Shown: positions 1-62,469 of the stretch, one piece after another
Position numbering within the stretch: the first letter of the stretch is position 1
Layout of the letters: each line of letters begins with the position of its first letter
Assembly: GCA_905178155.1 (NCBI GenBank)
Contig: CAJINV010000002.1
Location: 1,795,216 to 1,859,215 of the forward strand
From: Amoebophrya sp. A120
Lineage: Eukaryota; Protista; Dinoflagellata
DNA length: 64,000 nucleotides
Direction: 5' to 3'
The notes under the pieces: generated by a model
Told to the model about the DNA's origin: nothing
The model's input: the letters and a program-made list of their open reading frames with translations, nothing else
Databases searched by the model: none
Position numbers and translations under genes: made by a program

Positions 1-1166
1 TCCAACTCGTCGCCCTTAACCACCTATCAAATGTAAAAATGTCTGGGTCTGGAAGAATGCCAGGTTTGTCATGCATATTTTGCATGACACATGATGCCTG
101 TAATGCGTGGCCTAGCATCACAGATTTTGAGAGGGCTTTCTGGTGCGTATTCCGCATGAGAAATGCCCTCTCCGCGTAGCACAAACTGGACTCCTTTTGC
201 TGGTCATGCAATACAGACTTTTTTGGAATCCAAACACAGCATCACAAGTTGCAATCTCCCAGACCCAGACATTTTTACATTTGATACCACCGGCACCACG
301 TTTTCCGGGTGCTGCTGCTCGGAGAGACAATGTCCCTCTGGGTGGTCCGCGTAATCCGGGGCCTCGATGTAATCCGGCATCTTGACCTATGCATTGCAAA
401 TATGTCTGGGTCTGGAAGGTTGCAACTTGTAATGCTAGCTTTCCATACCTAGTAAATCTGTATTGCATAACCTACAACAGTCGCAGCCTCTTTGTCTTTT
501 GTTCATACAAACAACTTCTCATGCGGATTGCCCATGAGAAACCGTTCTGGAAGGTTGTCATGCTAGGTTGGATTCGGGACTGTTTCCATCATCCACATTT
601 TAGCATCAGAAGTTTCCAGACCCAGACATATTTGCAGTTGATATCACCTGTTTCATCACCTTCCCGGGTCTCAGTTCCCCGCTAAAAACATACTCCTTCG
701 GTCTCCTTCTCACCCGCCCTGGGGCCTCCCAATACTCGGGCTCTGGTTGCTTTTTCCCCATTTTCTTCTTCGCGGTGGTTATTGTAGTCGCTGACGTGGC
801 CTGCTCGGATGATGGGTTATTTTTATCGCCGTTACTTGGTGCAGCTGCTGGGGTAGGAGGTTGTGTCGGTGCTAAACCCAAAACGTTCATGGCCCAGTCG
901 TCGAATTTGAGAACTTCCTCTCCATCCTCATTGGTGTCCCAATACGCGCCGCGGAGCTTCTTGTTCCCCTTCTTTTTCGCCTTCTTCTTCGCATTTTTTG
1001 ATTTTTTCGCTGCGGAAGGCTCGGCGTCTTGTTGATCGGCGGTTGGGTCGGTGGGAGCATCGGCTGCGATTTTTGCGTCAGTTGCTGCTGCCACATCTTC
1101 CATAACAACATCTTCTGCTGCCGCGGGGTCTGGCTTCGCCGTTTTCTTCTTGCCGGCGGGAGCCAT
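1..1166 (-). CDS. METAP1: Methionine aminopeptidase type 1 (5' part; continues past the window start), 2 introner introns
   Basis: Splicing out the introners at 388-643 and 25-286 gives YVFSGELRPGKVMKQ|VKMPDYIEAPDYADHPEGHCLSEQQHPENVVP|VVKGDEL, which resembles the eukaryotic MetAP1 linker (Y.TG.LRP...PDYADHP.G.S.SEQ). Both introns can be read as GT-AG using the TSD. Confidence 0.85.
25..286. mobile_element. Introner family A
   Basis: TIR TATCAAATGTAAAAATGTCTGGGTCTGG; TSD CCACC. Confidence 0.9.
388..643. mobile_element. Introner family A
   Basis: A-type TIRs; TSD TGACC/TCACC. Confidence 0.9.
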
Positions 1167-3754
1167 TGTGTTTTATAGTTTTGGTAGGCGGGTGCGGGTG
1201 GAAAGCACGGGTATAATAACGTTGAGGAGGCTAGCAGCTTTGGGGGGCGATGAATTATACAAAGCACTTCCTTGTTTCTATGCTCGGAGACACAATAAAA
1301 GATTCCTGTTTGTAGTTATGGACAGAGCAGGTATGTAAGTACTTGTTAAACTTAAAGCTTAAGAGTGAAACAAGAAATAACGGTCTCGTAGGAGCTGATG
1401 AAACATGTGTAGTTGCTGTGCCATGTCAAGGGGAAAGTGCCATCGAGAGCTTCCTCGCGGTTGCCGAGGGACCTGAGTGCGGGTGGTGGCCGCAGTGGTG
1501 TGCCCGAATTCAATCTATCTACCATAAAATCTGCGGCGACGAGCCTCAGATGCCACAATTCTACCCACGAAGGAAGAACACTTTCTCTTTACGGGAAAAC
1601 ACACCAACGGGCGCTCCTGGCGCGTCACAGTGCGAAATTTGGTTCGACTGATCCAGGGGACTGGCATGCCGCCGCCGCCACATTGATTGTTTGCAGCGTT
1701 TGCCAAAACGGCAATCGGTGAACTACCAGAGCGCCACACGGCACCGGCGCGCGGCTCCCTGAAAATACCTGTGGGCACGGGGACCACCATTGCCAGCCAA
1801 GGAGGGGCGGATGGCCCTCGCTCCCAGCGGGGCGGCCGGCTGGGTGGGAAACACAGCACGGGCGCCGGAGCGAAAATACACAAAACAGCTGCCTGCGGCC
1901 ACGCACGAAGGTAGGAAGAAAATGGGAAGCGGCAGGGACAGCAAAGGGCGGGGGCGCGGAACGGGCGAAGCCCCCAGCGGCCCGCGCGCACCCGGCCGAG
2001 GGAGCCCCCGCCGGGCAGCCCATGCGCTGCCGGGCGTGGGCGCGACACGGAACGGGCGTGCCCCGTTTAGGGTTTCCGGGCTCGAGAGCCTGCCGCGCCG
2101 CGGCTGCGTTTTTATCCTGGCTTCTGACAGGGGCGTCTGGTTCCCTACCGCTGGGATGGCCCTAAATTCCGGAGATTTGAAGGAGACTTTCCTCATTGAT
2201 TCTCGGCGACCCGGGTGGTGCTCCCCCTGCTGCACTTGCAGGCCAAGCAGGAAGATCCTGCGGAGAGGATTTCCGCAAGATACCCGTGGCGCCGCCGACC
2301 CGCGCGCCATCAGGTAGCCCCGCGGCCCGCGCGCCCCGACAAAGGGCGGGGGGGCGGACGCAACCCATTAAGGGGGGGGGGGCGCCCGCTGCCAAAACCC
2401 GGCCGGCGGGCCGCGCCTGCGAAGGCGGGACCAGGGGCCGGCGCGGGCGCCGGCAGGATAGGGCAAGGCCGGCGGCACGGGCCGCCGCCTCTTGGGGCAA
2501 AGCGCGGGACGCCCACGAAGCTAGCTCTGGAGCGTGCGGGGCGCTTCGGGCCTGGTCTTGGTGCAGGCCGCTGCTCTTGCCGAAATCAAGAGCCTTCATC
2601 TTCGTTCGCCCCCCCAGCCACAAAAGCCGGGCCGGCCGCGCGCGCCGCGCGCCCTACCTTGAGCGGCCCCAGGCGACACACCCCCCCGGGCCGATGGGCG
2701 CAACAACTGCGCCGCTACGCACGAGGGAAGGCACCTCCAGAGCCCGCCCGACCAAGCGGCAAGCGGCGCCCCTTTGGAAAGCTGCGGCCGCCCATCCTCC
2801 ACAAGGCTGCGGCGCCCGCGTCAACCGTGTTGGCGTAGCGGTGTGGCGGCCGCATCTGCCGCCGGGCCTTCTCGGTAAAAGATGCCGACTGGCACTGCGC
2901 CCGCGCGGCCGGCTAGCGTGCGGCGGCGCCACCGAAGGCAACAGCCGGGCCCCCGGCCGACGCCGACTGCGGCCGGGCCACAAATATACGGCCGCCCTCC
3001 AACATCCATGGCCGCCGCCTATTATCGCCGGCCGGCAGGAGTTTCTCCGTTGGTTTGTTTAGGGAGTGCGGGCCCCCACCGTTTTTCGCGGCGCCGGGCT
3101 TGCGTCCATCCATGCCTCCTGGGCCCGGCGGCGCTGGGAGCCCACGCAACCCTTCCCGGCGCCGGCCTTTCACCCTATGCCGCTTCCTTGTGCTTTCTCG
3201 TCGGCGCCGTCAGACGAGGCGCCCCGAGGGTCTGCCTGCTTGGTTACCGCGGGCCGCACCCGGCAGGCTGGCGACTGCCACCTGTCGACACGGCAAGGCC
3301 GGCGCGCGGCGCCGCCGCGGCGGCCCGGCGCTAGGAAAGCGCACGCGGCACAGCCCTCGCACTGGGCGCGGCCCCGGCACGACGGACACGGCGCCGGCAA
3401 GCGGGCGCGGCTATTCTTATGCCAACGCACGCCGGCGCTCTATGAGCCAGCCCAAACACAACTAAAGGGGGACAATGAAAAAAGTTCTCGGCTAGTACAA
3501 TCGTGGCGCGCGTCGCTATTCCGTCCTCCAGCTTCGCGATCGTCGTCTAGTTCGCAGAAATTACCTTACGAACGATCTTTCAGACAAATTTGGTGCCGCG
3601 GAACACTGAAAAAGATCGTGCGTTCATTCTTTCATCCAGACGTCAGAGCAACAGGATTTTTCTCATCGTCAAGAACAGGTATTTTTCTGTGTACACAACT
3701 ACACAAGCAATTCAATTTTCTTTTTGAGCACGTCTAGCAAGGATCGAGATCGAC

Positions 3755-6504
3755 TCAAGCTTTCATCCTGATTTTTTCCATCATTTCTGCAATGGAAGTG
3801 ATTTTCACGGCTAGTTTCTCCACTTTTTTCCCCTCTTCCTCTTCCACTGCCTTCAACCTCAGCCAATCGTCGAAGTCAGTTACCGGTCCATCTACCATGC
3901 TGGTACCAACTTGTGATGCTTCTGCAGGATGAACTGGACCTGTTTTTGTCATGCGGGAAGATGTTGCAGTTGTTTCATTTCTATCTAAATACGCCAGCAC
4001 ATGCCCACTTGTTTCCGCCGCATCAGGTACGTTGGACGCGATCGTGCCTCTCGGTCCCCGTTTCAACCACCCGGCGCAGAAAACGTTGTCAAAAACATGA
4101 CCCTTGTTGTTCTTTAACGGGCCGAGATCTAATGGGCGTGGTGGGACTTCTGCGACGGCTGCAACATCAGCCCCTACTCGTGTTGTATCCTGCTCAACAC
4201 TACTTTTCTCCTCAGAAACGGTAGCTGCAGTGTTGACATGGTACGGCACCAACTCCTTGTCGAAGGGTTCAAATCCGAACCCGACCGACTCGAACACCCT
4301 ATCCACGCCTTTCAACACCAATTCGTCACTTGCAGGAACCGCCTTCACAACAGCTGGATCAGATGTTGTTTCCATCTCTTTTACCACCAACTTCGTTTTC
4401 AAGTATTTCAATTCGTTTTTGCTCTTATCATATCAAATGTAAAAGTGTCTGGGTCTGGAAGAATGTAAACTCGTCATGCAGATTTTCCATGACCCATGAG
4501 GTCTGGAATGCGGGACCTAGCATGACAGACTCTGTGAGGTCTCTGCCATGCCTATCCTGCATGAGAAACTCCCTCCCAACTTGGTCAAAAGTGAAAAGCT
4601 TTTGGCACTCATGCAACACAGATTTTCGCATGCTTCAGATTTACCATGACAAGTTGCCAGCTTCCAGACTCAGACATATTTGCAATCCATATATCAAAAT
4701 CCACCGGCTGCGTTAAAAACTTCAACTGCAAAATCGGCTTTTCCCTCGTTCCGACCGGTTCCGAGTCCTTTACCGACAAGCTTTCCCAGTTTTTCACCAT
4801 TTCCTCCAAAATTTTCATCTGCCGCTGTTTCATCTTGGATTTTCCCAACTCTTGCTTCGAAGTCTCATCCATTGAATTTTGGAAGTCAACAGGATCAATC
4901 ACCGTCGTGAAAAGCGAAGGATCCGCGTGTAATAACTCCCGTAATTCCTTCGTGCCGAATTGGTTCTGCACCGCACCTCTTCTTCCCGTGATGATAACGT
5001 GCGCAACATTCGACTTCTCAATCGCGTCCCGGGTTTCCTCAATGATATCGGAGTGAATTACTTGTGGTGCTTTGGGGGATAGCAACATTCGCGCGACGTC
5101 TAGGGCGACGTTGCCCAGTCCGTTGATCACGATTTTACTGCCGATTTTTTGTGAAGAAGAAGAAGATGCAGTTGGAGGTACTGGCGATTTTTCCGAGGTG
5201 GACTCACTTTCCACAGGAAATCCGTTGTACTCCTGCACAAAACTGTAGGCGTCGACACTACCCGGTATGCTGGTCTTTCCAAACTGCGCGCCCGTCGCTA
5301 ATACCACGGCGTCGTAGTTTTCTCTCAGTTGAGACAAGGGGAGGACGAGTTTGTCTTTGTTGTCATGCGGGTTTATCTTATTCGCAGCGCTGGAAGGAGT
5401 TGCTGAGGTGCCTGTAATTGTTGAACTCTCAGAGGAGGTAGAGGATTTCGCCGCATGATCGGTGGAAGAGGGGAAAAAAGTCGTGTACACCCGATCGAAG
5501 ATCGAAACTAAAGTATTTTGGATCACGTTGAAGTCATCAGGAGCGCCGTTGTCTTTTGTGTTCCCAGTTCTCTCGCATGAGAAATCTTCTCGATTTATTG
5601 CTGTTTTGGTTTTCGCATGAGAAGTTCTCAACATATCTCCGACCCACACGTTTCCGAAATACTTGAAATGCTGCTTATTTTTCTCAACGACCTCCTCGAA
5701 ATCATTGATCACGTTCTTCACCTCCGGGTGATCTGGAGCGACGCCGTAACGGACTAGGCCAAAAGGAGTGGGGAACTGGTCAAACATGTGGATGTTGATT
5801 TGTGGTTTAATCATGCGGTCACTACTTGCAGTGTTTCCTTCCTTGCCCTTGTTCGTAGAACCAGGTGCAGCAGCAGGAGTATTTCTCCGCAACAAAAATT
5901 TCGCTGTGTAGAAACCAGCCGGCCCGGAACCGACAATGGCAACGGTTTTGGCATTTTTTGAAGCGGCGTGGTCAGCAGCAGCTCCTGATGTCGCTGTTGC
6001 GGACGCAGCTTGATGTTTTTCGGTAGAAGTCCCTGTTGCTGTGGAAAAGAACCTCGGATGATTGGTCCAGCGGGGACGATGCTGCTTTGTTGAGGTTGAT
6101 ATCAACTGTAAAAGTGTCTGGGTCTGGAAGATTCTGACACTTGTCATGCTCGTTTTGCATGAGCCCTGATGTCTGTGATGCATGCCCTAGCATCACAGAT
6201 TTTTTGAGAGCTTCTTGATGCCTATTCCGCATTACAAATGCCCTCTCCGCGTAGCAAAAATTACATTCCCTTTGGTACTCATGCAATACAGATTTTTTTG
6301 GAATCCAAATGCAGCATCACAAGTTGCATTCTTCCAGACCCAGACATTTTTGCACTTGGTAGTTGATGAAGCAGCTGCCGACGTTCCGGTGAGGCACGGT
6401 GCTATATGCAGCTTCAACAAGCTTGCTGCACAACAACTTCCGCCGCGTTCTAGCCCGATCATCCTGACCGGACCGCCTGAGCAAATCGTGATTGCTGTTG
6501 CCAT
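3755..6504 (-). CDS. FDXR: Mitochondrial NADPH:adrenodoxin oxidoreductase (ferredoxin reductase), 2 non-canonical introner introns
   Basis: Motifs VAIVGSGPAGFY, PFGLVRYGVAPDHPEVKNV, INGLGNVALDVAR, GRRG and GWLKRGPRGTI. Frame is restored across 6100-6361 (AASS|TSTK) and 4431-4691 (VDFD|KSKN). Start ATG at 6504 (acaaaaATG) is inferred. Confidence 0.92.
4431..4691. mobile_element. Introner family A
   Basis: TSD TATCA; no GT-AG possible. Confidence 0.9.
6100..6361. mobile_element. Introner family A
   Basis: TSD GTTGA; no GT-AG possible. Confidence 0.9.
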
Positions 6505-6946: not shown

Positions 6947-7095
6947 TTAGAAATTCAAATTTCACTTTTCGCTATTGAGGCTAAAATTACTTCTGAAACT
7001 GTAACTCATTCATTTGTTAGCGTACTCGTGCACGCGCAATATAGTTGCCTCTGCAGCTTTAGCTTTTCTAGCAAACACACAGTTGTACTAGCGAA
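6947..7095. repeat. Repeat of about 150 bp, copy 1 (downstream of the CaaX gene)
   Basis: Shares TTACTTCTGAAACTGTAACTCATTCATTTGTTAGCGTACTCGTG with 9160-9319. Confidence 0.8.
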
Positions 7096-7105
7096 TTCGT
7101 TCCCG

Positions 7106-8488
7106 TTACATAATGACGCAGCGGCACATTTCTTTGTCTACTTGTGCCACCCGTGCCTTCGTTTCTTTCAGTTCCGCCTGGATTGTGTCAACTGTAAAAA
7201 TGCCTGGGTCTGGAAGAATCCAACTAGTCATGCTGATTTTGGCTTCTAAAATAAATCTGTATTGCATGAGCAGCAAAGAGAGTCCAAGTTTTGCTACACG
7301 GAAAGAGCATTTGTCATGCGGTAGCGGTATAGGCATCAGGAAGCCCTCACAAAATCTGTGACGCTAGGGCATGCATCACAGACATCAGGAGTCATGCAAA
7401 ATGTGCATGACAAGCCTGGCAATCTTCCAGACCCAGACATTTTTACATTTGATAGATTGCATCCATCTTCGCGTCCATCTTCGCCTCGAGCTATCCTTTT
7501 TCAAAACGTCCCCACACCAAAGTTGTCATGCACATTAGCAAGCACAGGAGCATTTGCGATGCGCATTCCCAAGAGAGGCAATTCCAATCGTGTTCTGGAA
7601 CTTGTAATGCTGTAAACAGGATGAGGAGATGGATGTGTTATGCGGATTCCCTTGCTAAACTGCATTAAACTACAACCTGCAACTTGTCATGCGTGACTCG
7701 CAAAACTTTCAGCTTTGTGTTGCAAAATTTCTATCTTGACTCTGGGGCGGAAACGTTTTTCCTCACAATACGAGCTTGTTGAGCTTCTCCACCAACTGGT
7801 TCCCCGCCGTGGCCGCCTCTGCCACGCTCCCCAGCCCCGCTTCCAACCCGCCGATGCGGAGCGCCGTCTATTGAGAGGAAAAATCCCCCCTCCCCATATC
7901 GAAAAGGTATGCTGCCGATAATTTGTGATGCAGATTCGTGACCACAATTCCTGTCTGTCTTGCGAGAAGACAAGGGCAGAAGCTTCCGCCCCATTATGGA
8001 AGCGATTTATCATGCCGCTGGGCCTAGGGGGCCGCCGTTTGTAATGCTAAACAACTAGAGCCAAGCGCCAGTGCCTAGGCTGAGGATCTGGCTGCGATGC
8101 CTTATTGCAAGACAGCGCGCATTTGGGTACGGAAATCCAGCATCAGAAACTTCGTTTTGATATGGGGAGGGGGGATTTTTCCTTTTGATGCCGTCGTTTC
8201 TACGTTCACTGCAGTTTCCTGGAGCTTCAAGCTTACGGCACTTGGATCAATCGCCTGGCTCAGATTCGCAATCGCCATGTCTAGATTCGCCACGGTTGCG
8301 CACAACGACTTCACGTCCTGGTGCGTCTGGATCACCCGGGGCAAGCTGCTGACCCCGCACTCGGCTCTATTGACAAAAAGGCCACTGGCGTGCCTATGCG
8401 CTACGCCGTTTTCTTTCGCCAAGATGTCACCCGCGTGACTGAGGTCGTTGGCACTCAGGAACGCTGTTGATCCCGGAGCGAGTGCCAT
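7106..8488 (-). CDS. Small coiled-coil protein with C-terminal CaaX motif (CRCVIM), 3 introner introns
   Basis: Spliced product ...NVETT|ALRIGGLEAG...EKLNKL|EAKMDAKMDAI|QAELKETKARVAQVDKEMCRCVIM*. All three junctions are in frame after removing element plus TSD. Confidence 0.8.
7186..7454. mobile_element. Introner family A (opposite orientation to 25-286)
   Basis: TSD GATTG. Confidence 0.9.
7492..7770. mobile_element. Introner family B
   Basis: TIR TAT..AAAACGTCCCCAC; TSD CGAGC. Confidence 0.85.
7869..8190. mobile_element. Introner family C
   Basis: TIR ..GGAAAAATCCCCCCTCCCCATATC; TSD CCGTC. Confidence 0.85.
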
Positions 8489-9159
8489 TTTTTTTGTCGC
8501 GAGACACGCAACGGCAGAGGACAGACAAAATTTGATAAATTAATATGAGAGTGCTGAAAAATGAAACTCTGGAAATCTAGACTCTGTTGGTTACCTATTG
8601 TGAAAAATTTTCCGGCTCGTTTCCCTCTTGCACAGCAAAAGTTTGCCGGTCAAAATATCGCAGCGTACGGCCGAGGACGGAAGCCAGGGGGTCACGCGGA
8701 TATTAGTTTGCGGCTGAAACAGTAAAAGAGTAGTTGTGGCTTTAAACTTCTGAGGTAGCTTGCCATAGACGAGCTCTACGAACCACGATGCGTTTGCACG
8801 CGCCCGAATTGTCGCAAATGATTTGGTCACAGATCACACTGAGAGCTTGTGCCAATATCCATTTATGTCGCATACGAACGAGTTTCTTACATCTCTCGTG
8901 GAAGACCAAAGCCGACTATTATCATCCTCATCAGATGCTTATGGACCGTGGATCGGCGACACCGAGCAGAGGAGGTTGACCGTTCGAAATACCGATGAAA
9001 TTCGAAAAGTTAAAACAAGCAACGCACTCAATGCTCAGGACGAATGATCCCAATCTTGTTCTTCACAAACCGAAATAAAAGTACAACAGCAGTACCCAGA
9101 GTGGCGCCAAATGGAGACGCGAAAGGGAAAGCCTTTCTCGCGCCGCCCTATCACTGCAT

Positions 9160-15262: not shown

Positions 15263-16032
15263 TTTTAGTTGTACGATTTTTGCTGCTTGTGCTTCAGCAG
15301 AATGTGAAAACGCACGCTTTGTTGTTCTCGAAGTGAAGTGCTGTCAAGTTCCACCTTACCCTGATATAATTTCTGATTTACAACTTATAAGTGATTCACT
15401 AAAAACGATGTCGCTCACAGGTGCGAACAACAACAAACACCTTTAATACGATTTTTTTCTCCCTCAAATCGCCCCGAATTCAAAGTCAATCATTTTTGCG
15501 CTCGTAGGGCGTGGTGCAAAAATTCTCTCACTTTTGCGAGGAAGAGAAAAGAAACAACACTTCTCCTCGACATTGGAATTTAACGAAAAAACGACAGTTT
15601 TGATGCAGCTGGCGGGAAAATAGGAGATAAAAAGCGCGGCTGAAGGCTGTCAACGAGCCGGCTTTATTGTTTTTGTCAAAAATTATTGGAAAAGCGGGGT
15701 GGTTTTCGTTTTACTTCTAGGAAGAAGGTTCATCACGGCAGTGTCGATGTGTATCTCAAATGAAGATGGCTATGCGATGTTTGCGCGTAAAATCTAATGT
15801 GTTTGATAGCAAGCGTTCACTTGATCTTCCGCCCCCTTCATTTTAGCGTTTGCTTCATTTGTGCGATAGATTGAGACGAGAAACCAACCACCAGGTGTGG
15901 TCCTGTTGTCTCATCGCATTCTTGCCCACATTCTTCTTCCACCTCTGTGAAGAAGCACTCAAGTAAATGCGGTTGATGTGGTGATACAGTCGTTGGTGAT
16001 CCACAACTTCAAATCCTCTTATCTCCTCCTCC

Positions 16033-16783
16033 TCACTGCGGCATCCCCGGCGGTCTCAAGCCCCGCGGTTGCATTTGGGACTGATTCGGTCCTCCGACCC
16101 CGCGAGTGGGTGCTTGCAGGCCCATACCCATCTTATTCATGGCAAGCGCGTTGCCGCCACCGCGACCCGCGACCGCTGCTCGACCGGGGCCGGCAGTGTG
16201 TTGTGTCGATTTTACCAAGTGCGCAGGAGGTGCCTCCGCCGTCATCGACATGACCTGATATTGATACATAGATGAGATTTTTTTCATACACACATACAAG
16301 TGTATTTGTCAGCAGACTGCTTTACATGATCATGATGCAAAATTTGATTTTGTCATACAAGAAACGCAACATCAACGATACATGATTCTTACCGTATCTC
16401 CTCGTAACACCACCAATCCGATTACTCGCTTTACTTCTCTCTCCTCACCGGAGGCCTTGTGTTTGACTTTGCGGAATTCTTCTGTTTCGCCAAGTACCAT
16501 GTTCATGTACCTGATGTACAGCGAGTTTATATGTGTCATGGGAACAAGAAGTTGCCTTGCACGAGGCAAAATAAGTATGATTTCGCATGCAACAAGAGCA
16601 GCAAAACAAGATCTGTATTGCAGATAGTCCATAACCGGCACCAAGATCAGAGAGGGCAAAAACTTTCTTATACTTGTCAAACGCCAGGAATGTTCCCACC
16701 AGCACCCTGCGGTCTTTTTCGTTTGTCGTCACCCTTACCCGGTAGTCGATCCAGGTTTGCATCTTCGTCTTTCGGTCCGCCAT
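16033..16783 (-). CDS. SNRPB: Small nuclear ribonucleoprotein Sm B/B'
   Basis: MADRKTKMQTWIDYRVRVT...VGTFLAFDK|YMNMVLGETEEFRKVK...REVKRVIGLVVLRGDT|VMSMTAEAPP...GPGRAAVAGRG...RGVGGP. GT-AG introns at 16511-16673 and 16255-16392. Confidence 0.95.
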
Positions 16784-50500: not shown

Positions 50501-52122
50501 TTTTACTATCCTTACTTCCCGTCATCCGTATCTTTTCTCCCTGGGAGACAATCGAGGGCCGGTTGTCGAAACTTTGCACCGCACCAAGTTGTCTCCGGTT
50601 GTCTTTGGTATTCTTCATCTCGTTCGAGATCATTTTCTCCTTATGTCTGTTTCCGAACGATATCAAATGTAAAAATGTCTGGGTCTGGAACATTCTAAAC
50701 TTGTGATGCTGTCTCTGGATTCTGAAAAAATTTGTATTGCATGACCAGCAAGAGGACTCCAGTTTTTGCTACGCGGAAAAGTCATTTCTCATGCTGTAGA
50801 GGCATCACAAAGCGCTCTAAAAATCTGTGATGCTACGGCATGCATCACAGACATCATGGGTCATGGAAAATATGCATGACAAATCTAGAAATCTTCCAGA
50901 CCCAGACATTTTTACATTTGATAAACGACATAACCGGCTTTTTCACTTCGATACTGGATCCGAGTGCTGAGGGGCGCAGCACCGGCGCTTATCAAGAAGA
51001 AAAAACGTCCCCACGCCGTAGTCAAGGAAGTTGGTAAATCTGCAACACAAATCTCCAGGCTTTGCGAGTTGTGCATGACAAGTTTCCATCTGCAGAGTAG
51101 TGGTGGTTAGCAAGGGAAGCTGCATGAGAAAGCCATTCTCTCATCCACATGCTGTTTACAGTACTTACTTATGACAAATGCCAAAACAACACGATTGGGA
51201 ATGCCTCTCATGGGGATGCGCATTACAAGTGTTCCTGTCATTGCGCATTTGCATGACAACTCTGGGCTGGGGACGTTTTTCCTCACAATAGCGCTTCGCC
51301 GTCTGTCAAAGTGACGCGGATTCTGCTCGTGTCAAAATCCGCTCCCTCATCCCGCGCCCCCTCAATCAGCCCGGCGCACACCCTCTGACAGCTCTTTTCG
51401 CACATGATCGCGCAAAACCCGCCCACCCCGTCCTTGCCGTGGTCGGTGCCAATCAGGTTGAGCAGTAGAAGGGGATTGGCTTGGGGAAGGAGTAAAGCCA
51501 CGGCTTTGGATTCCCCGAAACAGCACCCTACGTTCACCGGCACTTCGGGCTCGACGTGGAGGATGTCCTTCAAAGAAATCACCGTGCAATCCGTGTAATT
51601 ATTGTCCGTCACGTAGAAATTTTCGATCCCCAAGCCGTACGCGGTTAGGTTGCACCTTTTCAAATCCTCACTTTTCCGGTAGCAGTTGCACCAGATCACG
51701 GAAACCATACTTGCGACGAAAAAAACGATGATGCTGATCATCATGACCAGGTTGCCCATCTTGTAAAATGCCACGTCTTCGTCCGTTATAATCGGGTCGT
51801 TGTTTGCTTCTCTCTGCGCCGTTGTGGGACAGTCTTCCGGCGGTTCCATTTCCCACTTCTCCTTGCACAGCACGCTGTAATCCGGCCGTAGCGGGTACTC
51901 TAGCACGCAAAACAGGGTTAACAAGACGCCGTGGATGACAACAACGAACGCGGCCCAGAAAAACTGGCAGAACTGCGTGCTCTTTGTGACGGCGTCCTTG
52001 GCGTCCGGGCCCACGCGCCAAACGGCAACGATGGCGTCGCCGTGGTCCTGGGCGTGCTCCTGCATGTGCCATTCGTCGATGGCGTCGGCACCGGAAAAAA
52101 GCTGCACCCCCGACTTTGGCAT
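47600..52122 (-). CDS. Two-TM membrane protein with Met/Pro/Gly-rich tail (paralog 1), 8 introner introns
   Basis: MPKSGVQLFSGADAIDEWHMQEH..IVAVWRVG, two hydrophobic segments and LTAYGLGIENFY. The tail is reconstructed in frame to GGYNYGATQ...GLFSLFF*. Confidence 0.78.
47660..47993. mobile_element. Introner family A (strongly diverged)
   Basis: TATGCATT.CAAAT ends; TSD TCGGA. Confidence 0.7.
48058..48204. mobile_element. Introner family E
   Basis: TSD CGCGT. Confidence 0.88.
48254..48584. mobile_element. Introner family C
   Basis: TSD CCTTT/CCTTG. Confidence 0.85.
48865..49138. mobile_element. Introner family A
   Basis: TSD TGCTC. Confidence 0.85.
49217..49478. mobile_element. Introner family A
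   Basis: TSD TCAGC/TCAGA. Confidence 0.9.
49628..50212. mobile_element. Introner family B carrying a nested 287-bp insertion
   Basis: TSD TGCCA; insert 49668-49954 flanked by the 18-bp repeat ACCCCATAGTTGTCATGC. Confidence 0.85.
50661..50923. mobile_element. Introner family A
   Basis: TSD AACGA. Confidence 0.9.
50990..51290. mobile_element. Introner family B
   Basis: TSD GCGCT. Confidence 0.85.
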
Positions 52123-52877
52123 ACTGCAGAACTGAGTACCGCTTTTTTGTACTTATTCAAGGTGGACTACCGCTTTATTCTTTCTAGGAATCTAGGAGTA
52201 GCACGTCGCCCGACCCCGGGGCTTGTTGTTCATCTCCCGTCGCGCCATGAAATTTCTGTCGTGAAAGAGGAACTACACCGTGCATAGGAGCATTAAATCC
52301 AAAGTATGCGAACGCTAATTTCAATACAAAACAAATTCAAAACGAATTCAAAATGTCAGGGGTTCGTAGTGTGTACACGACCGAGATGCACAACACCACA
52401 TCCCTGACAAAAAACATTCCCAACCCGTTCTACGCCACAGAAGCACCCACCTGTGGATGGTCGTCCAATACTCTTGCGACTCAGAGCGAGGGCAGCAACG
52501 AGATACCTGCAGGCTCCTCGGGGCACGCGCCTTTGATGCCCAATTCCTGAAGCCCCATGGAGTACAGCCAGAGGCCCCGCTTACGTTGAAACACCGGGAA
52601 AAATGGCCCGCGCCAAAGTGGCGCGCGGCTGCGTCTACACAGACGCTGCAAAGAGCGCGGATTCGCCTCGCGTCGCGGGCGGCCTTCTTGCCGGCTGGAA
52701 GCGCAAGCATGGCCGACAGGCGTGGGCCCCACACGGCCCTGCCTATCTGGAGACCCAAACACGCAAACGCTGTCTATGCCGCTACCAGATAGGGAGTGGG
52801 GTCATGGCGCGAGTCTTATGTCGCCAAGGCTGCCAAGCTTGGCGGCCATATTCGCAAGAAAACTCAGTACACAGGCG

Positions 52878-53120
52878 CATTTCAAAACATGATTCAAAAT
52901 CTAGCACAATTTCAAAACGTCTTTCAACTTTCTCGGCAATTTCAAAACGTATTTCAAATTTCCCGGCAATTTCAAAACGTCATTCAAATCTTTTTTCAAT
53001 TTCAAAACGAAATTCAAAACTCGGTTCAAAATCCGTTCAAAATGCGTTCAAACCAATAGCCTCATCGGTGGACGCATTTTAAAAGGATTTTGAACGATTT
53101 TTGAACTTCTTTTGAAATCG
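52878..53120. repeat. Phased TTCAAAA tandem array with a terminal hairpin
   Basis: Units of about 30 bp containing AATTTCAAAACG; 53014-53049 is inverted at 53070-53105. Confidence 0.8.
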
Positions 53121-53284
53121 AAAAAAAAACGCTCTTTACTGGAGGCTGGCTCCCGAAGTTCCAAGTACATGACGAATACCAAAGATGAAATTTCTGTCGT
53201 GAAAGATGAACTACACCGTGCATAGGAGCGATCACGCAGGAGTAGAGGAACTACACCAATACCAGAGCGATCACGCAGAGTGCC

Positions 53285-53552
53285 CAATTTCAAAAGGAAA
53301 TTGGCGGGCCTAGGCAATTTCAAAAAGAAATTGGCGACCTGAACGGAATTCAAAAAGAAATTGGCGGGGTTGATGGAATTCAAAAAGAAATTGGCGGCCC
53401 CGAGACAATTCAAAAAGAAATTGGCGGATCTGGGCAATTTCAAAAAAAAGTTGGGAATAAGTTGGAGACAAGTTCAAAATTAGTTGGGTCAGGGATTCTT
53501 AGTATGGGAAACAGAAAAAAGTTGGCTTCCAACTTATTTCCAACTTTTTTTT
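53285..53552. repeat. 30-bp tandem array (AATTCAAAAAGAAATTGGCG + variable 10 nt) followed by a hairpin
   Basis: About 5.5 units; AAAAAAGTTGGGAATAAGTTGGA inverted at about 53528-53552. Confidence 0.8.
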
Positions 53553-56067
53553 GAATCTGGCGAAGGGAGATTCCTCAAGACCTGGACCCTCTTGAGTTGG
53601 CGTGCTTTACTGCATGCCCCTTCAAGTACGAAATCCCCCATCCGAAGCGCTGTCGAGAAGCCTTTCGGTGTGAAGGTCGACCCTAACAATGCCCCGCAAG
53701 CTATACCCCAACACCCTGAAAGGAAGAGGGGCAGGAAGCGATCACGAATGAAAGCCTTTACACAAAAAGCGCCCCAACAGCTGGCTTAAAACATGGCCCC
53801 AAGGTACCGACAACAATAACACGAAACAGAAGGGATTCCACAGTCTTTGTCCCTAGCGCAGAGGTACTAGAGGAGCCCGAGCTGCGAGCCTGGGTCCTGG
53901 GCATGCGTGGGGGCGATTCGCTGCAAGGCACGGCAGGTGCACAAAACAACACACGAATCCGGGGAACATCATATCCAACCACATACCCGAAACAGACACC
54001 CACTCCCGCAACTGAGTGCGCATTTACCAATCCGCCCTGCCCAATGTCGATTGCACTAGGCCGCTAGACACAGGACGACACTTAAACCCCAAAAAAAGAA
54101 GCCGCACATCCGAAAAAATAAACCCAAGCCCCGCTCAATTTCACGGAAAAATGAAAAGTGCGTCTTTTTGAATTCCTTTTGAAATCATTTTGAATTGTTT
54201 TTAGCATAAGGCGCTTTGGAGTTAAATGAAATTTCTGTCGTGAAAGATGAACTACACCGTGCATAGGAGCAGAGATAGAAGTTGAAATATGTGAGGAACG
54301 AGATTTTTACTGAAATAAATCATGCTTGTCGAAACTGAGACAACCAGCGGGATCCGCTGCGTGATGTCACATGTGGAGCATATATTAGAAGAACGGGATC
54401 CGTTCTAATGAAGGTTCTTCATGCTACGTTTTTACCAAAACGTTATACAACATCGTTCTTGTTCTTGGGCCTTGTATTTATACGTAGCTCCTGTGTCGCG
54501 AACGCGATGAATGAAAACAAAAATGAGTTGCAAGAATGGCATTATCGGGAGATTGATGTTGTTGAGCCATCGCATACCAGTTGTAGTTCCTCAAGGTAGC
54601 ACTAGCAGTTGTACACGACACGACACGGCAAATAAGCCGAAAGCAAATAAGCACGGAAGCAGGATGCACGAACAGACAAGTTTTTTTTCTCGGCTGCAAA
54701 GCAATAACCGACACAGGAAATTCGAGGTGGACCACATATGGAATTGCACGACAAAGAGATCAGATCAGATCAGAGGTGTCGGCGCACGTGGCGCAGCCGT
54801 TGGAGCCGTTGGAGTGGGGCGTACTCGGGGCTGTAAGAGCTCCGGCGAGTGCTTTCATGAGCTAAGCTTGACCACGCTTACTGCTATAGTAGAGGCGGCT
54901 AACTATGAGGCGCAGCCACGCGAGCCGGGCTCAACGCAGCAGTCAGGCAATCCTAACCACCACGTCGGCCATAAAACAGTATATGGCTTGTAGTTTCACG
55001 GCACAACAATTCTCTTAACTTTCCGAACGAATTATGACGACTGAGTTTTCCATTTGCACGGGAGCAGACGAACAATAACTAAAGGGAACGAAAAGGCAGT
55101 GGAACCACCGATAGTACCTGACGCCCAGGAAGGACCGACGGACGACTACAGCGAAATTTATTTGTGATACGAGGCAGGAGTTCAAGTTCTGACGAGAAAC
55201 AAACCTTGCGTGCTTTTCTTCAACTACAGCAAGAGCAAATGGTCGGCAGAGTCTGTCATCCGCGTACCTGGCACCTGACACTGACTCTGTATGGTAAAAC
55301 TTCGGCTCATACTGAAATTCAAATTACGATTGCATTTTGATTCATCACACCTTTGCAGTTTTTCTTCCTGTGTTTCCTTTCGCTGCGGCGGCTCATTTAG
55401 CACATTCTTGCTGCTTGATGTTTCCTACGATGTGCTGAAAAAAAGTGCAACCATAAAATTGTAAACAAAACTACCCAGGGATTGGGACGGGATCTACTTA
55501 GTGTTAGTTCGTTCTCTAATAATTCTAATTCTTTCTACAATACCGGAGCGGGATCCGCTCTTTCTCTTGTATGGTGGGGAAAAATACTAGTGCGGCAGAT
55601 TCTTTTTTTTTCCGAGAGTCTGCGTTTTATCTTACGGGCCTTTGGTCTTCAGGTGAAATCATGTGAAATCCTGGTTTGATGCTCGAGGAGCAAATTTTGT
55701 AAAATAGGATGAAAATTTTTATGGAAACTGTAATTTAAAATCAAGTAAACTCTTTGAACTGACTTGCAAATTGAAAAACAAAATAATTAACTGTATTCTT
55801 TTTTTGACTACATCTTCACAGCTGGAACTCTACATCAACTCATCTGGATATGAAGAAACAACAAATTGTTATGCAATTAGGAAAAAAACTACTCTATGAC
55901 TTGTTTTGCGAAAAAATCTCATCAAAAATCATGTGAAAAACCTGTACTTACGCGGCAGTACAGTACTCGATAAAAATGCTTCGCTTTTATTTTATACCCC
56001 GTTCACCATCTACTTGTCGAAATCGGCTCTTCTTGCTCTTCACAACACCGCGGCGCGATACTGCTTA

Positions 56068-59000
56068 TCAAAAGCCGAAAAACGAGAAAATGGATGGCTC
56101 TTCTCCTGGCGGCTTTTTCGGGTCCCTGCCGCCTAGTGTGATGTGGGTATAATCGGAACCGTCTGTTTCCCCGGACTCCATGTCCTCGACCATTGATTCA
56201 TCCTCCCCCGCTGCAGCGGACATGACGCTCATCGCCGCACCTAGACTCCCGGAAAAAGTTTTCCGCTCCGCCTTCTCGGGGTTTATTTTCCCCGCGGAGG
56301 CCGTCTTCGTCTTTTTCGTACCGCCGGACTTTTTCGTGGTAGCTTTTTTCGTCGTTCCTGCTTTCACCGACGATTTCGGTGCTTCGTTCGCAGCTCCTCC
56401 GGGCAGCGCGGCTGCGGCTCCTTTTCCTTTTCCCTTTGTCTCCAAAGACGCGAGAAAAGAGGGGCGTTGCCGGACTGCGGTGTCAACGGCCGGAGGGCTC
56501 GAGACGGCGGCTGCGGGGGTTATCAAATGCAAATATGTCTGGGTCTGGAAGGACCCGAACTTGTGATGCGAGCAGTTGTGGACTAGACAAAGATCTGTGT
56601 TGCATGACTGGCACTAGGTGCTCACTTCTGGTCACGCTGAGAGGGTATCTCTCTTGCAGAATAGGCATCACGAAGGGGCAGCAGAACCTGTGATGCTAGG
56701 CTCCGCATTCCAGACTTGAGCGAGCTTGGCAAAACTGCATGACAAATCTCGGAGTCTCCCAGACCCAGACACATTTGCAATGCATAGGGGTGGAACTAGG
56801 ACCCCCACCGAACGCCGGCGGGTTGGAGGAGGCCCCCTTAAGGGCCTGCGCGGATGTGGCGGGGGCTTGCGATACGGGTGAGGTACTTGCCTTATGGAAG
56901 TGTTAGGTTCGAAATCGACAAAGTTGAAATAATTTGCCATGCATAAAATGGAGGCCAGTTGAAGCCCAGTTTCCAAGTGGGCATGACAAATTTGGGTACA
57001 ATCTAAATCCAGTTTGTCATGCTGCTCGGGTAAGGACGACGCCTTTTGTCATGCTCCTTGAGCAGCTCTATTTCTACCCCTCAACAGGCTTACAATCTGC
57101 CTCTCTTGCGACCTCTGCAATACAGAAAGATTCTGCGTTGCATTTTATGCATGACAAACTCAAACTATTTCAACTTTGACGATTTCGATCCTGACACATC
57201 CATATGCTTTCGGCTGCTCCGTGTATTTGCTACCGTCGATCCGTAGTTTCGGACTGTCATCCACCGCCGGCGCACTTGTAGTTCCGGTGGCGCCGTAGTT
57301 GGTCGGGGCGTGCCCCACTAACGCGGCTATCGGGTCTGGCGGTTCGTCACGCTGATTTTTTGCGGGGAGATTGGGATTGCGTTCGCTTACCTGCTGACTG
57401 GCGCGCAAGAATTGACTCACGTTCCCGGCTATCAAGTGCAAATATGTCTGGGTCTGGAAGGCTGCCAGACTTGTAATGCTTCGCTGACAGGAGAGAAAGC
57501 TCTGTCATGCATGTCGCGCTACCACGCCTTTTTTTTGTATATGCAAATATTGCTTTTGCTCATGAAGACATGCAGTTTACGCGAGATCTAGCCGCTCAGA
57601 AACTTGTCATGCGCGTCCCCATATTGGAGGTTGCTTGGTGATTCGCAAACTAGCATCACAACTTTCGAGACCCAGACATTTTTGCATTCGATACCAGCCT
57701 GAGCGTTGATTAAGGAAATTCTGGAAATTATCAAAAGGAAAAATCCCCCCTCCCCATATTGAAAAGGTGTGTTGCCGAAAATTTGCGTTGCTGATTTGAG
57801 GTCACAAATCGTCTCTGTGTTGCATGAAGGCAACTCCAAAAGCTCCGCCGCTTTCTACAGGCGTTTTGACATGCTGTTTTAGCTACAGCGTAGACGTCTT
57901 TCATGCTACGCGCCTAGGCCAAAACCTGTCTACTCAGGCTTAGTATGGGCCTGCAGTCCTCGCTAGCAGCACAAATTTGATTTGTGTACGCAAGTCCGGC
58001 ATCAGAAACTTCGTTTTGATATGGGGAGGGGGGATTTTTCATTCTGATAGAAATGTCGAAGTCCCCGCCCTCGTCCTTCGCCCCCTGGATGAGTTGCAGG
58101 CAGAGTTTCTGGCTCTTCTTGTCGCAGTGGACTGGACACAGGTGGAAGAAGCCTCGTCTCAAGCTTTTGTCCGCAATTTGAGAGGATTGTGGGACGAAGA
58201 GACAGACCGCGGTGGTATTCCCTCCGCACCCGAGACTCACATCGGAAAGCGCCACGTGATTCACCTCCGAGAGGCTCGCGGCTTGCAAAGTTTCGTACTG
58301 GTTTTTCGTCACGTAGAAGAACTTCAGCCCTAACGCATACACCGTGTGCTCATAGGTGGCGGTCTCGCTTTTCCCACACTCGCAGATGCAGAAAATCGCG
58401 ATAAGTAAGGAGATCAGCAACAACCCGCCCGCGCCGGCCCACACGGCGAGAATCCCCCTTCGGTAAAACTGGTGATAGGGTGGGTTGGTGAACCAGTCCG
58501 CAATCTGCTGCTCGGTCATTGCAGCTTTTTTCTCCTCTGTTATCTCCTGCTCCTGAATCTTTGCCAAGTGCTCCTGCTTCAGCGCTTCCGTTTTGGACTG
58601 CACGAACAGCGTGCCGCCGAACCCCGCGCCGACGCATAACCCAAGGAGAACGATGACCCAGATGATGACCAGACAGCGGCTCTTCTTCTTCCGCGCTTGT
58701 TCTACCTGCTCCCCGACGCGCCAGATGGCCACGAGGTTGTCGTCGTGGTTTCGCGCGTGTTTATCAAATGCAAATATGTCTGGAGGGTCTGGAACACGAG
58801 TGTACACTTGTCATGCAAGGTTTCCATGACCCATGAGGTCTGGAATGTGGGACCTAGCATGACAGACTCTGTGGGGGGTCTGTTATGCCTCCCCTGCATG
58901 AGAGACTGACTCCCTCCGATTTTGGTCGAAAGTGGACAGATTTTGGCACTCATGCAACACAGTTTTCTAGCATGATTCGGATTTAGCATGACAAGTCGCA

Positions 59001-59099
59001 ATCTTCCAGACACAGACATATTTGCAATCCATAGTGTTCCTGCATGTGCCATTCGTCGTTGGCGTCCGCGCCGGAAAACAGCTGGACGCCGACTGGCAT
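56068..59099 (-). CDS. Two-TM membrane protein (paralog 2), 5 introner introns
   Basis: MPVGVQLFSGADANDEWHMQEH|ARNHDDNLVAIWRVG...HTVYALGLKFFY...LIQGAKDEGGDFDIS|...PTNYGATG...SIFSFFGF*. Confidence 0.8.
56521..56786. mobile_element. Introner family A
   Basis: TSD GGGGT. Confidence 0.88.
56893..57204. mobile_element. Introner, singleton TIR type (TATGGA.GTGT.AGG.TCGAAATCG.CAAAGTTGAAATA.TTTG)
   Basis: TIR of about 44 bp; TSD TGCCT/TGCTT. Confidence 0.85.
57430..57693. mobile_element. Introner family A
   Basis: TSD CCGGC/CCAGC. Confidence 0.85.
57729..58049. mobile_element. Introner family C
   Basis: TSD GAAAT. Confidence 0.88.
58762..59033. mobile_element. Introner family A
   Basis: TSD GTGTT. 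Confidence 0.88.
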
Positions 59100-60694
59100 G
59101 GCGATGGTTTTCGGTAGTGGTGTGGAAGCTGTAGTGTTATACTGATGTTCTAGTTTGTTTTTTACGTAAAGTACTTCTCCTCGAGCTTCTAGACTGGGCT
59201 CCAGTCTATTTGCGTCACAACGTCGCCGGGAAACTCACATTGTACTTGTACTTTTAACGGGGGGACCACGCGGCAGCTTTTGCGCGCTGCGTGGCTTAGT
59301 CGAGTTTTTAGTTTTGTTGTTAACATAGTTGTTTTTTTCGAAAATGCAAATCAAGTGTAGTGTATAGATCTTTCAACATATACATAACAATGGCTATTTC
59401 TACTCTTCATCCAATTGGGTTCCAATATGGAAGTAGCCTGTTGGTGTTAATTTTGTCCATAGCACGGGTGGAGGTCGTGAAAAGCGATAAACATGTGATG
59501 TTTGCACGAGAAGGAGGATGACGGAAACAAGTGAACAAAGTGTATGTACGACGGGACGCTAGAAGTACGCTGTAGCACGACACCGAGATGATGATGGGGT
59601 TGTACGAATACGAACTAAGCGTAAGCCGGACAAAACCGAACAACCGAAGCAAGCATGTCTACTATCGCGAAACATCAGGCACGGCTGGGAATACTACATG
59701 AAGCCACGAAGAAAATCCTTCTTCGTACCGACTTCTCATTTGGCATCGTAACTAATGGTTAAACCGAAGAATCAAAACTCGCTTTGGTTTCGCCGATACG
59801 GCCTGACGCGACACAGGTAAGCACAGTACTGCAAGGTCGTGGACGAAGTTCAAAATTCTGCAGAAGGAAAGTGTTCCACCGAGATCACATCCGAAATTTA
59901 CGTATCTTCATCTTGGGCAGAGAGACGATAGGGATGCCGAAAAATAAGCAAAACCTGCTGGCCGATCACATGAGTTGCTGGAGAACTGTGATGAAAAGCA
60001 GTTACGGCTTTATTTCTTGCACGTGCGCTGCTATTCTGTTTCTGGATGGTCCCGTCTATGCAGGCTTTTGCACTGTACCTCAGGGAGCGGAAGACTCGAT
60101 TTTTCTTTTTGGGATGATAAAGCGAAAGTGCACGATTAATTATGTCTGAAAGTATGTAAAAGCTAAAAACTGTGAAATAAGATCAAAAAACAAAGACTGA
60201 CATAGAATGCTTAATTTTGATTCTCTATGTGAAACTGTCGACGCACCATGAGGCACGACGACATAATGCGGGGTGGGTGCTGAATGTGAAAGTTAAACCA
60301 CGTCTTTGAGTTTTTCTCTGCGAAGCGGGTTACGCCTTATTTTTGTGGTTCTCTAAATCTGTGAGGGTGAGTGCTATCGTGACTGTAGTGTTCACACAAG
60401 GTGCTGTAAATAGGAATTTTCGTTTTTGGTGATACTGTCGTCCTCTGAATAGAAAAATTACTAAAAATAAGTAGGTAGTAGAAAAAATTATTCTTCAGGA
60501 TGTGCGATGTGCCGATCCATCCTACGGTGTGGGTTCGTTCTTTCGTGTTTTGCTTCTTGACTGCCACAAGCAGAGGAATAACTACAGCCTCTTCTTCTCA
60601 CGCCTGGTCCTGCTCCAAGAAGTGAACAACCGGCTTCCATCTCAGACAAATCGAAAAACGATTGAATGATCTTATGACCCCGCCCACTAAAAAA

Positions 60695-62469
60695 TCAAAT
60701 TCTTGCCATCATTTCCCGCCGCTTTTCGTCGTACTCGAACTGCGTAATGGCCTCCGCATCCAACAACTGCTTCAATTGCATAATTTTCGCAAAAACGTCC
60801 TCCGACCGGGGTCGGAGCTGCGCAGCTCCCGTGATAACTGCTGCGGTTGCTCTGTCCACGTCAGAAATCACGGAAGATGAAGTACCTCCCGCAGCCACGC
60901 CGGCTGCAGTCCTGCTCTGGTTCCCCTCGGTTGTACCTGTCGGAGCTGCTACGCTCGCATTCATTCCCGTTGATTGTTCTGCGGAAACTGTATTCGCGTC
61001 ATTGTTATCTGTTGCTCCGTACATAGTTCCCGATTGGTTCGTTGTATTCGTAGTATCCGCGCCCGAGGATAGGGCAGCTGCGTAATTGGCCGCGGATAGT
61101 TGTTGCTGCTGTTGTTGCATCTGCAAGACGACCATTTTGGCCGCGCCGGTGCTGCTGCGGAGGTATTTTTCCCGTTGTTCGCGGATCATCTTCACCGCGC
61201 TCTCTGGATCATTGCACAAAACCGTGCAGTGGGAGTGCAAGATGTTGGTTACCCCCCCGATCTGCGCGTAGGGCATCAGGCCAGAGTGGTGCTGAATGGT
61301 GTCAACTAACGCGTTCCCGACCGGAACGTGGAGCTTCACACCCGTGGTCCCGCCGTAGCAGTAGAATAACCCGGATTCCTTGTGATCCACCGTCACGCTC
61401 GTGATCTGGCCCAAGTCGCAATAGGCCCGATCATCCCCGGACTTGTACAATTTCCCCATGTCGATGCTCCGGAGTTTGTAAAAGTTCTTTTCCCCGAGCG
61501 CCCACACCATCCCTTCGAGTCTTGCATTCGTTTTCTCACTGCGCCAATACGACCGGCACATGAAACTCGCGATTAACAGCATCCCAGGGACCGTGATCAC
61601 CAAAATGCCCACGATCATGGCGTCGTTGCACAAAAAGCCACCTGTGCTTTCTGGTTTTGAAAGAGGTGCTGAAGACGCAAGAGTTGCTTTGTTCGCTGCT
61701 CCTGTCGCTGCTAACGCGGATTGCAGTTCTTCCTCTTGCAGTTTTTTCTCCTCATCTAAGTCCGGTCGCATAATCCCCCACAGAGTCACGGGAACCACGG
61801 CGATCGCGAGACAGTATCAAATGCAAGCATGTCTGGGTCTGGAAGAGTCGGGGCTTGTCATGCACATTTTGCATGGCCCGTGAGGTCTGTGATGCAGATC
61901 CTAGCGTCACAGATTTTTTGAGGGCATTTCTCATGCTTATCCCGCATGAGAAATGCCCTCTTCGCATGCCAAGAAATCGACTCCTCTTGCTGCTCATGCA
62001 ACACAGATATTTTCAGAATCCGCAGGGACCATTACAAGTTCCACTTTTCCAGACCCAGACATATTTGCACTGCATAGACAGAGCAGCAATGCGATGATGC
62101 TCGTCCACACCTGACAGGTGTTGTTTTTTTCGATGGTTTCCCGGTTTTCCTCCGAGACCCGCCATATCGCGATTAACTTGTCGTTGTCTTCTATCCCACG
62201 AAAAAAGTGTTACAGTTACACATTTGTAGTGAATTCAGCAACACAAAGTTCTCTGCATGACAGAGAAAACTTGTAATGCAAAAATCCTACGTGGAAACAC
62301 CTATGAAACGAGGCTCCTATGCATATCCGGCATGACAGAGCTTGTCTGTCTTGCTTGGCCTGCAACACAGTGTACAACTGCAACACTTTTTTCTTGCGAT
62401 ATCTTCTCTCGCAAACTCCTCGCACTTCTGGCGGTCTTCCTCTTTCGCATTGGAGAGGAGCTGGACCAT
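60695..62469 (-). CDS. Two-TM membrane protein with C-terminal SHOCT-like domain (paralog 3), 2 introner introns
   Basis: MVQLLSNAKEEDRQKCEEFARE|DNDKLIAIWRVSE...LLLC|LAIAVVPV...GMVWALGEKNFY...FAKIMQLKQLLDAEAITQFEYDEKRREMM (SHOCT pattern). Confidence 0.8.
61815..62076. mobile_element. Introner family A
   Basis: TSD GACAG. Confidence 0.88.
62192..62401. mobile_element. Introner family F
   Basis: TSD TCTTC. Confidence 0.85.

Follow-up and report, generated by a model that had tools for sequence, protein, structure and literature searches.

A fixed asymmetric cut register apparently delimits the TAT...ATA introners of Amoebophrya sp. A120

About 65% of the introns of the dinoflagellate Amoebophrya sp. 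A120 are removed without GT-AG ends. How this is done has been a question since 2021, one reason being that the cut is concealed by direct repeats. It arises in a stretch of 64,000 nucleotides of this genome (contig CAJINV010000002.1, positions 1,795,216 to 1,859,215; in the following the window), in which 64 introner elements occupy 18,692 bases (29%). The elements are bounded by TAT...ATA and by a 5-bp target-site duplication (TSD). Judged from nine sites, the intron apparently consists of one TSD base, the TAT...ATA element and four TSD bases, which is a fixed and asymmetric cut. As one plus four equals the length of the TSD, removal in this register is seamless at any target.

The elements and the position of the cut

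Sixty-one non-nested elements were found by a scan for a direct repeat (the TSD) flanking a terminal inverted repeat (TIR), for which shuffled-window controls yielded 0-1 and 0-3 matches. Three further elements (39957-42159, 30319-30634 and 31812-31957) were added later by a search for unpaired ends and by reading of the sequence. A previous sequence-only reading of the window had counted about 64 elements, all in coding sequence and none intergenic, and this was borne out: all 64 lie within minus-strand reading frames which are open after excision of the element and five bases (long frames of, e.g., 763, 636 and 1288 codons), and no intergenic element was found in the window, where the sequence outside the elements contains only four weak, unpaired end-like matches. 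Its end code and TSD length also hold, with 13 of 63 examined elements differing by one base from TAT or ATA, and with TSDs being perfect in 46 of 64 cases, carrying one mismatch in 15 and two or three mismatches in 3. The claimed minimum of six TIR families plus singletons corresponds to seven interior clusters (22, 7, 5, 5, 4, 3 and 2 members) and 13 singletons among 61 elements. The largest cluster is split 12:10 by orientation; 25-286 and 7186-7454 are family-A copies in opposite orientation, as had been stated. Interiors span 145 to 2203 nt. A GT-AG register is possible in three of 61 elements (25, 388 and 48254; chance expectation 2.0) and was, in line with the earlier reading, not found at 4431, 6100, 7186 and 7492.

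The same reading had placed these elements among the introners of Amoebophrya. Three exons of the window match deposited Amoebophrya sp. A120 proteins at 100% identity, and the published A120 end code matches, so that the elements are the known TAT...ATA introners of this strain, a system already described (Farhat et al. 2021, PMC7789003). According to the available part of that paper, A120 introners have inverted ends of TAT, seven looser bases and three or more A, direct repeats of 3-5 nt, many families, a length of about 240 nt and RNA-supported removal. The window elements show the corresponding features, namely an inverted repeat made up of TAT, seven looser bases and a run of A, a direct repeat at the border, families and removal from RNA without GT-AG. 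They also carry the hallmarks of miniature inverted-repeat transposable elements (MITEs): TIRs, a TSD of fixed length, no coding capacity and high copy number. DNA read depth over the elements reaches up to about 1e5, compared to a background of about 25. The elements are likely non-autonomous TIR DNA transposons spread by cut-and-paste. No transposase family was found in the 31 frames or proteins scanned, the window has no match in Rfam, and four long elements in 559 kb of a second assembly contain no frame of more than 149 codons. A TIR family with homology to Copia/Gypsy has been reported (PMC12130899).

Sequencing runs which cover the window to different degrees were used for following the elements in RNA and DNA. 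X10 consists of raw cDNA reads and covers the window only at the reductase gene (see below); X9 and X11 cover essentially nothing. X3, X4 and X6 are contigs taken as RNA by guess; in X6 and X4 a GT-AG intron is absent as well, which supports this. X1 consists of DNA contigs from a single run, possibly the window's own source, and contigs drop rare variants; the joint table of the DNA run is dominated by repeat-to-repeat joints.

Mapped across the junctions, a check proposed by the sequence-only reading, RNA lacks the element plus one TSD at 17 sites, with elements in both orientations and GT-AG unused. Removal restores the motifs named in that reading (kinesin VDL/AGSE and SRSH/SIF, CKS1 WRG/LGVQQS) as well as the frame of the FAD-dependent reductase. 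At element 4431 X10 reads break off at 4430 (29 reads) and at 4692 (32 reads), with their remainder lying in the opposite exon; 4425 is joined to 4692 in an X3 contig, and the X10 depth of 271 in the bin 4003-4669, compared to 416 in the adjoining one, fits near-zero coverage of the element. One X6 contig of 3191 nt lacks all 16 elements of 33400-39750, in each case by the element length plus 5, and these include family-B copies in either orientation; the 16 removals are documented by 13 listed joints, two pairs of adjacent pieces and one case of record offsets. Low-depth X3 and X4 contigs keep element 33552 and one RNA contig with 34562 removed runs into 35144, as would be expected of partly processed RNA. 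The X1 DNA contigs, by contrast, run from exons into elements and keep them; those at 10899-12866 and 15006-18978 pass without a break through three whole elements, at 28x and with no other letters. Element removal thus occurs at the RNA level. If retained, 35 of 63 elements would shift the frame, and in 56 of 63 each of the three frames contains stops.

Only sites with non-identical TSD copies reveal the register r, i.e., how many bases of the upstream copy remain in the mRNA. At position 1 the retained base is that of the upstream copy at 33552 (RNA joint) and 49217, where the downstream first base would create a stop upstream of four further in-frame elements (frame logic), and r is at least 1 at both. 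Position 2 comes from the upstream copy at 39224 (RNA joint) and 14864 (contig piece limit; r at least 2), position 3 at 13999 (contig piece limit; r at least 3), and position 4 apparently at 388 (contig piece limit), although a GT-AG register exists there, and at 27537 (deposited model P0268; r at least 4 at both). The opposite bound is set by 37323, where the downstream copy is kept at position 5 (r at most 4; joint 37318 to 37559 in X4 and X6, with P0269 reading GGASQS). At 31812 only r = 4 fits: four kept bases yield FRRPLGT, as in deposited P0001, and five yield a stop; the 'PL' of this CKS1 motif occurs in 64 of 112 motif-bearing homologues. A register of 4 fits all nine informative sites and is contradicted by none, for which the chance under a uniform per-site register is 0.0024 (post hoc). 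If true, the fixed register provides exact intron ends and gene models become correctable by rule. It would also explain the saturation of exons, with 19 elements in one kinesin gene for example, as every insertion would be silent.

For comparison, 145 loci (L001-L145; 559 kb) were retrieved by a pattern scan from a second assembly (contigs JACKZZ01). They have no exon sequence in common with the window, contain 403 elements in all and include relatives of 56 of the 64 window elements at 75-97% identity. A perfect 5-bp TSD is present in 280 of 403 cases, and 236 of 313 are exact at length 5. Elements with a TSD matching at three or more of five positions, a length below 700 and a confident strand call were kept (293 of 403); the strand was called from exons alone, which in a leave-one-gene-out trial on the window was correct in 44 of 45 cases. 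A GT (or GC/GA) donor combined with an AG acceptor does not characterize the elements, as a GT-AG register is present in 3 of 61 in the window and in 17 of 293 here. Target sites are unconstrained. A depletion of T at TSD position 5 in the window (5 of 61, p=0.026) was not replicated in the second assembly (48 of 233) and was rejected as a signal. TSD mismatches fall on third codon positions in 11 of 15 cases in the window and 28 of 49 in the second assembly, more than free intronic drift suggests; this may reflect occasional use of the other copy or a constraint on the last four bases of the intron.

Genes and elements of the window

The elements and the host introns used for comparison are given below.

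25-286, 388-643, minus strand: two elements of the first gene; the TSD of 388-643 is imperfect, its copies differing at position 4, and an available GT-AG register is apparently unused by the RNA contig, of which a piece starts at 644 with no other letters (joined piece not listed)
4431-4691, minus strand: element of the flavin adenine dinucleotide (FAD)-dependent reductase gene (FDXR-like, Pyr_redox_2), without GT-AG register, removed with one TSD
6100-6361, minus strand: second element of the reductase gene; a contig departs from the window sequence at 6094
7186-7454, 7492-7770, 7869-8190, minus strand: elements of one coiled-coil-like gene
10660-10922, 11733-11907, 12728-12883, 13304-13570, 13625-13880, 13999-14250, 14864-15079, minus strand: elements of an ankyrin-containing region (Ank); a contig piece spans exactly 14251-14858, between elements 13999 and 14864
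18475-18734, 18952-19214, 19566-19821, 21440-21652, 21720-21919, 22611-22864, minus strand: elements of one 1288-codon open frame
27537-27819, 27946-28209, 28276-28539, 28583-28867, 29139-29400, 29976-30210, 30319-30634, minus strand: seven elements; deposited protein P0268 reads KINQA at 27537
31812-31957, minus strand: element of CKS1, TSD matching at 2 of 5 positions
32044-32305, minus strand: element of CKS1, at WRG/LGVQQS
33552, 33854, 34154, 34365, 34562, 35144, 36263, 36689, 37037, 37323, 37660, 37856, 38567, 38864, 39224, 39498 (first positions), minus strand: sixteen elements of the 3' part of the kinesin gene
37319-37558, minus strand: extent of the intron around element 37323-37557 as inferred from the fixed register
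39957-42159, minus strand: 2.2-kb family-A element, flanked by RASYL and EIYNEE of the kinesin and taken out in the deposited model P0269; the RNA sequences aligned here do not cover the site
42210-42433, 43009-43164, minus strand: elements of the 5' part of the kinesin gene
45456-45774, minus strand: sole element of a 199-codon frame
47660, 48058, 48254, 48865, 49217, 49628, 50661, 50990 (first positions, within 47660-51290), minus strand: eight elements
56521, 56893, 57430, 57729, 58762 (first positions, within 56521-59033), minus strand: elements of a 568-codon frame
61815-62076, 62192-62401, minus strand: elements of a 438-codon frame
38251-38401, minus strand: host GT-AG intron (GTATTG...CTATCAG), used for comparison
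39691-39808, 42476-42593, 42736-42876, 12145-12266, 16255-16392, 16511-16673, 28905-29080: other host GT-AG introns
10984-11085, 11446-11580: host GT-AG introns, predicted only

The spliced kinesin, after removal of 19 elements and 4 GT-AG introns, has 803 amino acids and matches the deposited A120 protein (P0269), as does the spliced CKS1 (100 amino acids) its deposited counterpart. In the deposited kinesin 8 residues are missing behind element 37037, while the X6 contig has that exon whole (161 nt). Within the kinesin exon the family-A element 39957-42159 harbors a nested insert of about 1.9 kb (40010-41935) which has poly-T at one end, contains a TGTAT microsatellite and is accompanied by a duplication of about 17 bp. 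It looks like a retroposed sequence of the type without long terminal repeats, has no Pfam match in four frames, and 154 nt of it recur at one locus (L035) of the second assembly. Two further elements are enlarged. One of 853 nt (at 35240-35950) is removed in RNA all the same, and its GC-rich interior recurs at locus L051 (78% across 526 nt); the other of 585 nt (at 49660-49960) has its own subterminal sequence repeated around an insert.

In the coiled-coil-like gene an X3 joint from 7185 to 7771 was discarded because DNA shows its variants too, and these resemble a second copy of the gene. The variants at 7145-7152 and 7811 are present in both DNA and RNA contigs of 7109-8539, which suggests further gene copies elsewhere. 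A gene with an Sm/LSm domain, a family of spliceosome components, has two GT-AG introns and no introner (16255-16790). Four paralogous membrane-protein genes (29760-30700, 47603-52152, 56071-59234 and 60698-62493) have an 'IVA[IV]WRV' start and a 'YALG..NFY'-like block in common; P0268, the one deposited piece of these paralogues tested, belongs to no Pfam family. An intergenic block at 52240-54260 with repeated TTCAAAA units, tandem copies of about 30 bp and three copies of a 40-bp sequence is possibly another type of mobile element. All identified genes lie on the minus strand, and unidirectional gene clusters have been reported for the genus.

How the elements may be removed

The sequence-only reading had concluded that the paired termini direct removal in place of sequence signals, and that this implies a non-standard machinery. 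The former is not supported: the cut is asymmetric and fixed at nine sites, the terminal TA is conserved one-sidedly, and G-U pairs in the stems are no more frequent than A-C mismatches. As to the latter, GT-AG is indeed not used and both orientations are removed, but a new machinery is possible rather than implied, and a relaxed spliceosome is likelier. The fixed register shifts the odds from a wholly new machinery toward a loosened spliceosome, without settling the matter.

Under r = 4 the T and A of the element fall on intron positions +2 and +3 (61 of 62 each in the window; 293 of 293 in the second assembly), a donor context like that of host introns, of which 10 of 10 begin with GTA (two of these predicted only). 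GTAT is also the top GT context at coding-to-noncoding edges of the second assembly (67 of 615, compared to 689 of 14,386 overall). Deviations from the terminal TA are polarized: there are none at the transcript 5' end and nine at the mirror end among the 293 elements of the second assembly (p=0.004), and 2 versus 18 among 357 elements if the window is included (p=4e-4). Farhat Table S4, which lists the nine commonest non-canonical A120 ends as all NT-NN and nine A25 ends as all TT-NN, agrees with T at +2 under this register (PMC7789003); for A25 the listed ends would predict another offset, again with T at +2. The first and last intron bases are arbitrary. An A at -7 is present in 62 of 62 introns, with no significant excess over the mirror position (p=0.09). 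An apparent purine bias at +1, seen with single-mismatch TSDs, was gone once two-mismatch TSDs were included.

These observations make us lean, with rather more belief than doubt, toward removal by the host spliceosome in a relaxed form, in which the first and last bases are no longer prescribed but the donor TA is kept. The 5' end N-T-A-T would be read as the host donor G-T-A-(T) with its first base relaxed, and the 3' cut would be placed by its distance from the terminal ATA without a check for AG. The symmetric ends would present both signals in either orientation; because TAT...ATA is symmetric, orientation independence needs no further cause. A hairpin may bring the ends together, but may not be needed. 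Fritillaria provides a precedent for a loosened spliceosome (PMC13326754), and A120 itself still has 83 of the 89 spliceosomal proteins along with U2, U4, U5 and U6 (PMC7789003).

Several points weigh against this proposal. The terminal TA also lies at -6/-5, a position it shares with the TA of 5 of 10 host acceptors (TATCAG); this acceptor idea is unconfirmed in the second assembly because the home-made finder of canonical introns was too noisy (of its 27 window calls, 2 agreed exactly with one of the 7 known introns). At the first intron base there is no significant drift to G or purine (9:4, p=0.27), and arbitrary end bases fit poorly with the non-Watson-Crick end pair which splicing normally needs (PMC13326754, available part). 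U1 is reported as not detected in A120 (PMC7789003). The predicted stem would bury the donor, with the termini pairing in 58 of 60 sense folds. The register itself is based on three listed RNA joints, three contig piece limits (joined piece not listed), two deposited models and one case of frame logic, all nine sites are on one chromosome strand, and the six RNA-sequence sites alone give a chance figure of 0.051 (post hoc).

We hold the relaxed spliceosome to be likelier than a non-spliceosomal, structure-guided nuclease with a ligase (tRNA-splicing-like or euglenid-like), a tentative alternative which would take the base of the terminal stem as its reference point and cut 1 nt ahead of it and 4 nt behind. 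A ruler enzyme would be expected to produce such a fixed staggered offset, and the pairing of the termini in the sense folds, the arbitrary end bases and the tolerance for interiors from 145 to 2203 nt suit it as well; release as circles is known from the nonconventional introns of euglenids, which have paired ends (PMC11282704). The stems, however, show no sign of selection for pairing of the ends in RNA, as G-U pairs and A-C mismatches are in a ratio of 44:48 in the window and 167:176 in a second, larger count, changes at end position 2 even favor A-C over G-U by 6:1, and the conserved TA is polarized to the donor side, on the host +2/+3 positions. Of comparably doubtful standing is the bolder idea of an A120 route without any end-base requirement, which would read TA at +2/+3 and cut four bases past ATA, making any TAT...ATA transposon with a 5-bp TSD a perfect intron, whatever its site and orientation; in its boldest form an undescribed hairpin-measuring nuclease-ligase, instead of the spliceosome, would handle most introns of the genome. 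It is unlikely that spliceosome chemistry is retained but that a hairpin, or a protein on the motif GCATNASA (TSTNATGC), is needed for intron definition in place of the U1 undetected in A120 (PMC7789003, available part). This motif is enriched 19-fold inside the elements (13.2 versus 0.69 per kb outside), peaks near both element ends and occurs in 5 of 7 host GT-AG introns examined. Yet it is found on both strands (116:95), without strand signal, and is missing from 3 of 61 elements, of which 36689 and 39224 are removed in all runs showing the site.

Removal at the DNA level, with transcripts being made from cleaned templates, appears highly improbable. The internal eliminated sequences (IESs) of ciliates have TA-containing ends and leave a single repeat, which the elements resemble. 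Only a single DNA run, possibly the window's source and of one life stage, was available, and 15 of 1443 joints are listed. The check for empty DNA sites suggested by the sequence-only reading nevertheless came out negative in this run: unlike ciliate IESs, which are missing from somatic DNA, the elements are retained by the X1 contigs, which cross whole ones unbroken. Moreover, RNA contigs are partly processed (34562 removed with 35144 entered, two contigs retaining 33552) and end conservation tracks the direction of transcription. Least probable of all are slips of reverse transcriptase across a repeat-flanked hairpin (falsitrons), although the anatomy is textbook-like for these (PMC8240250, available part) and all RNA data are cDNA-based. 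Retention would break conserved genes, with the kinesin gene alone carrying 19 elements, and the X10 depth dips over the bin of element 4431. A slip at the stem base should presumably keep the downstream copy, but the upstream copy is kept at positions 1-4. The choice of the repeat copy that is read may still be biased by such an artefact.

Comparison with known introner systems

The proposed relaxed spliceosome and the fixed register can be set against the available parts of the cited descriptions of introners. With PMC7789003 the window shares inverted TAT ends, direct repeats, many families and RNA-supported removal. There, splice positions are described as variable, without a clear end signature, and the legend of Fig. 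3 calls the border unknown; here, the TSD is 5 bp, a single cut register fits and the donor-side TA is invariant. A literature search, with subscription journals mostly outside its reach, did not turn up a paper in which the A120 register is fixed or the mechanism resolved. Part of the register may be contained in Farhat Fig. 3 and Figs S19-S25, but the fixed cut register is apparently a new addition to the published system.

The nonconventional introns of euglenids likewise have paired ends offset from the cuts, TSD-like repeats and no GT-AG. Their end motif, CAG/CTG at +4..6/-8..-6, differs from the one found here; they have pyrimidine/purine junctions and form circles without lariats (PMC11282704). 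In Fritillaria borealis, MITE-derived introns with TIR and TSD are removed by an altered U2 spliceosome (PMC13326754, PMC11282704). Their commonest ends are AG-AC and AG-AT, and a duplicated U2AF as well as U1 are retained (PMC13326754), whereas in A120 the end bases are arbitrary and U1 is reported as undetected. The introners of Polarella glacialis, Symbiodinium and Aureococcus are likewise TIR transposons turned introns, which recruit TSD bases and in some classes are bidirectional. They, however, need a donor starting with G and an AG acceptor, and their targets are constrained (bioRxiv 10.1101/2020.10.14.339549), neither of which applies to the elements of the window.

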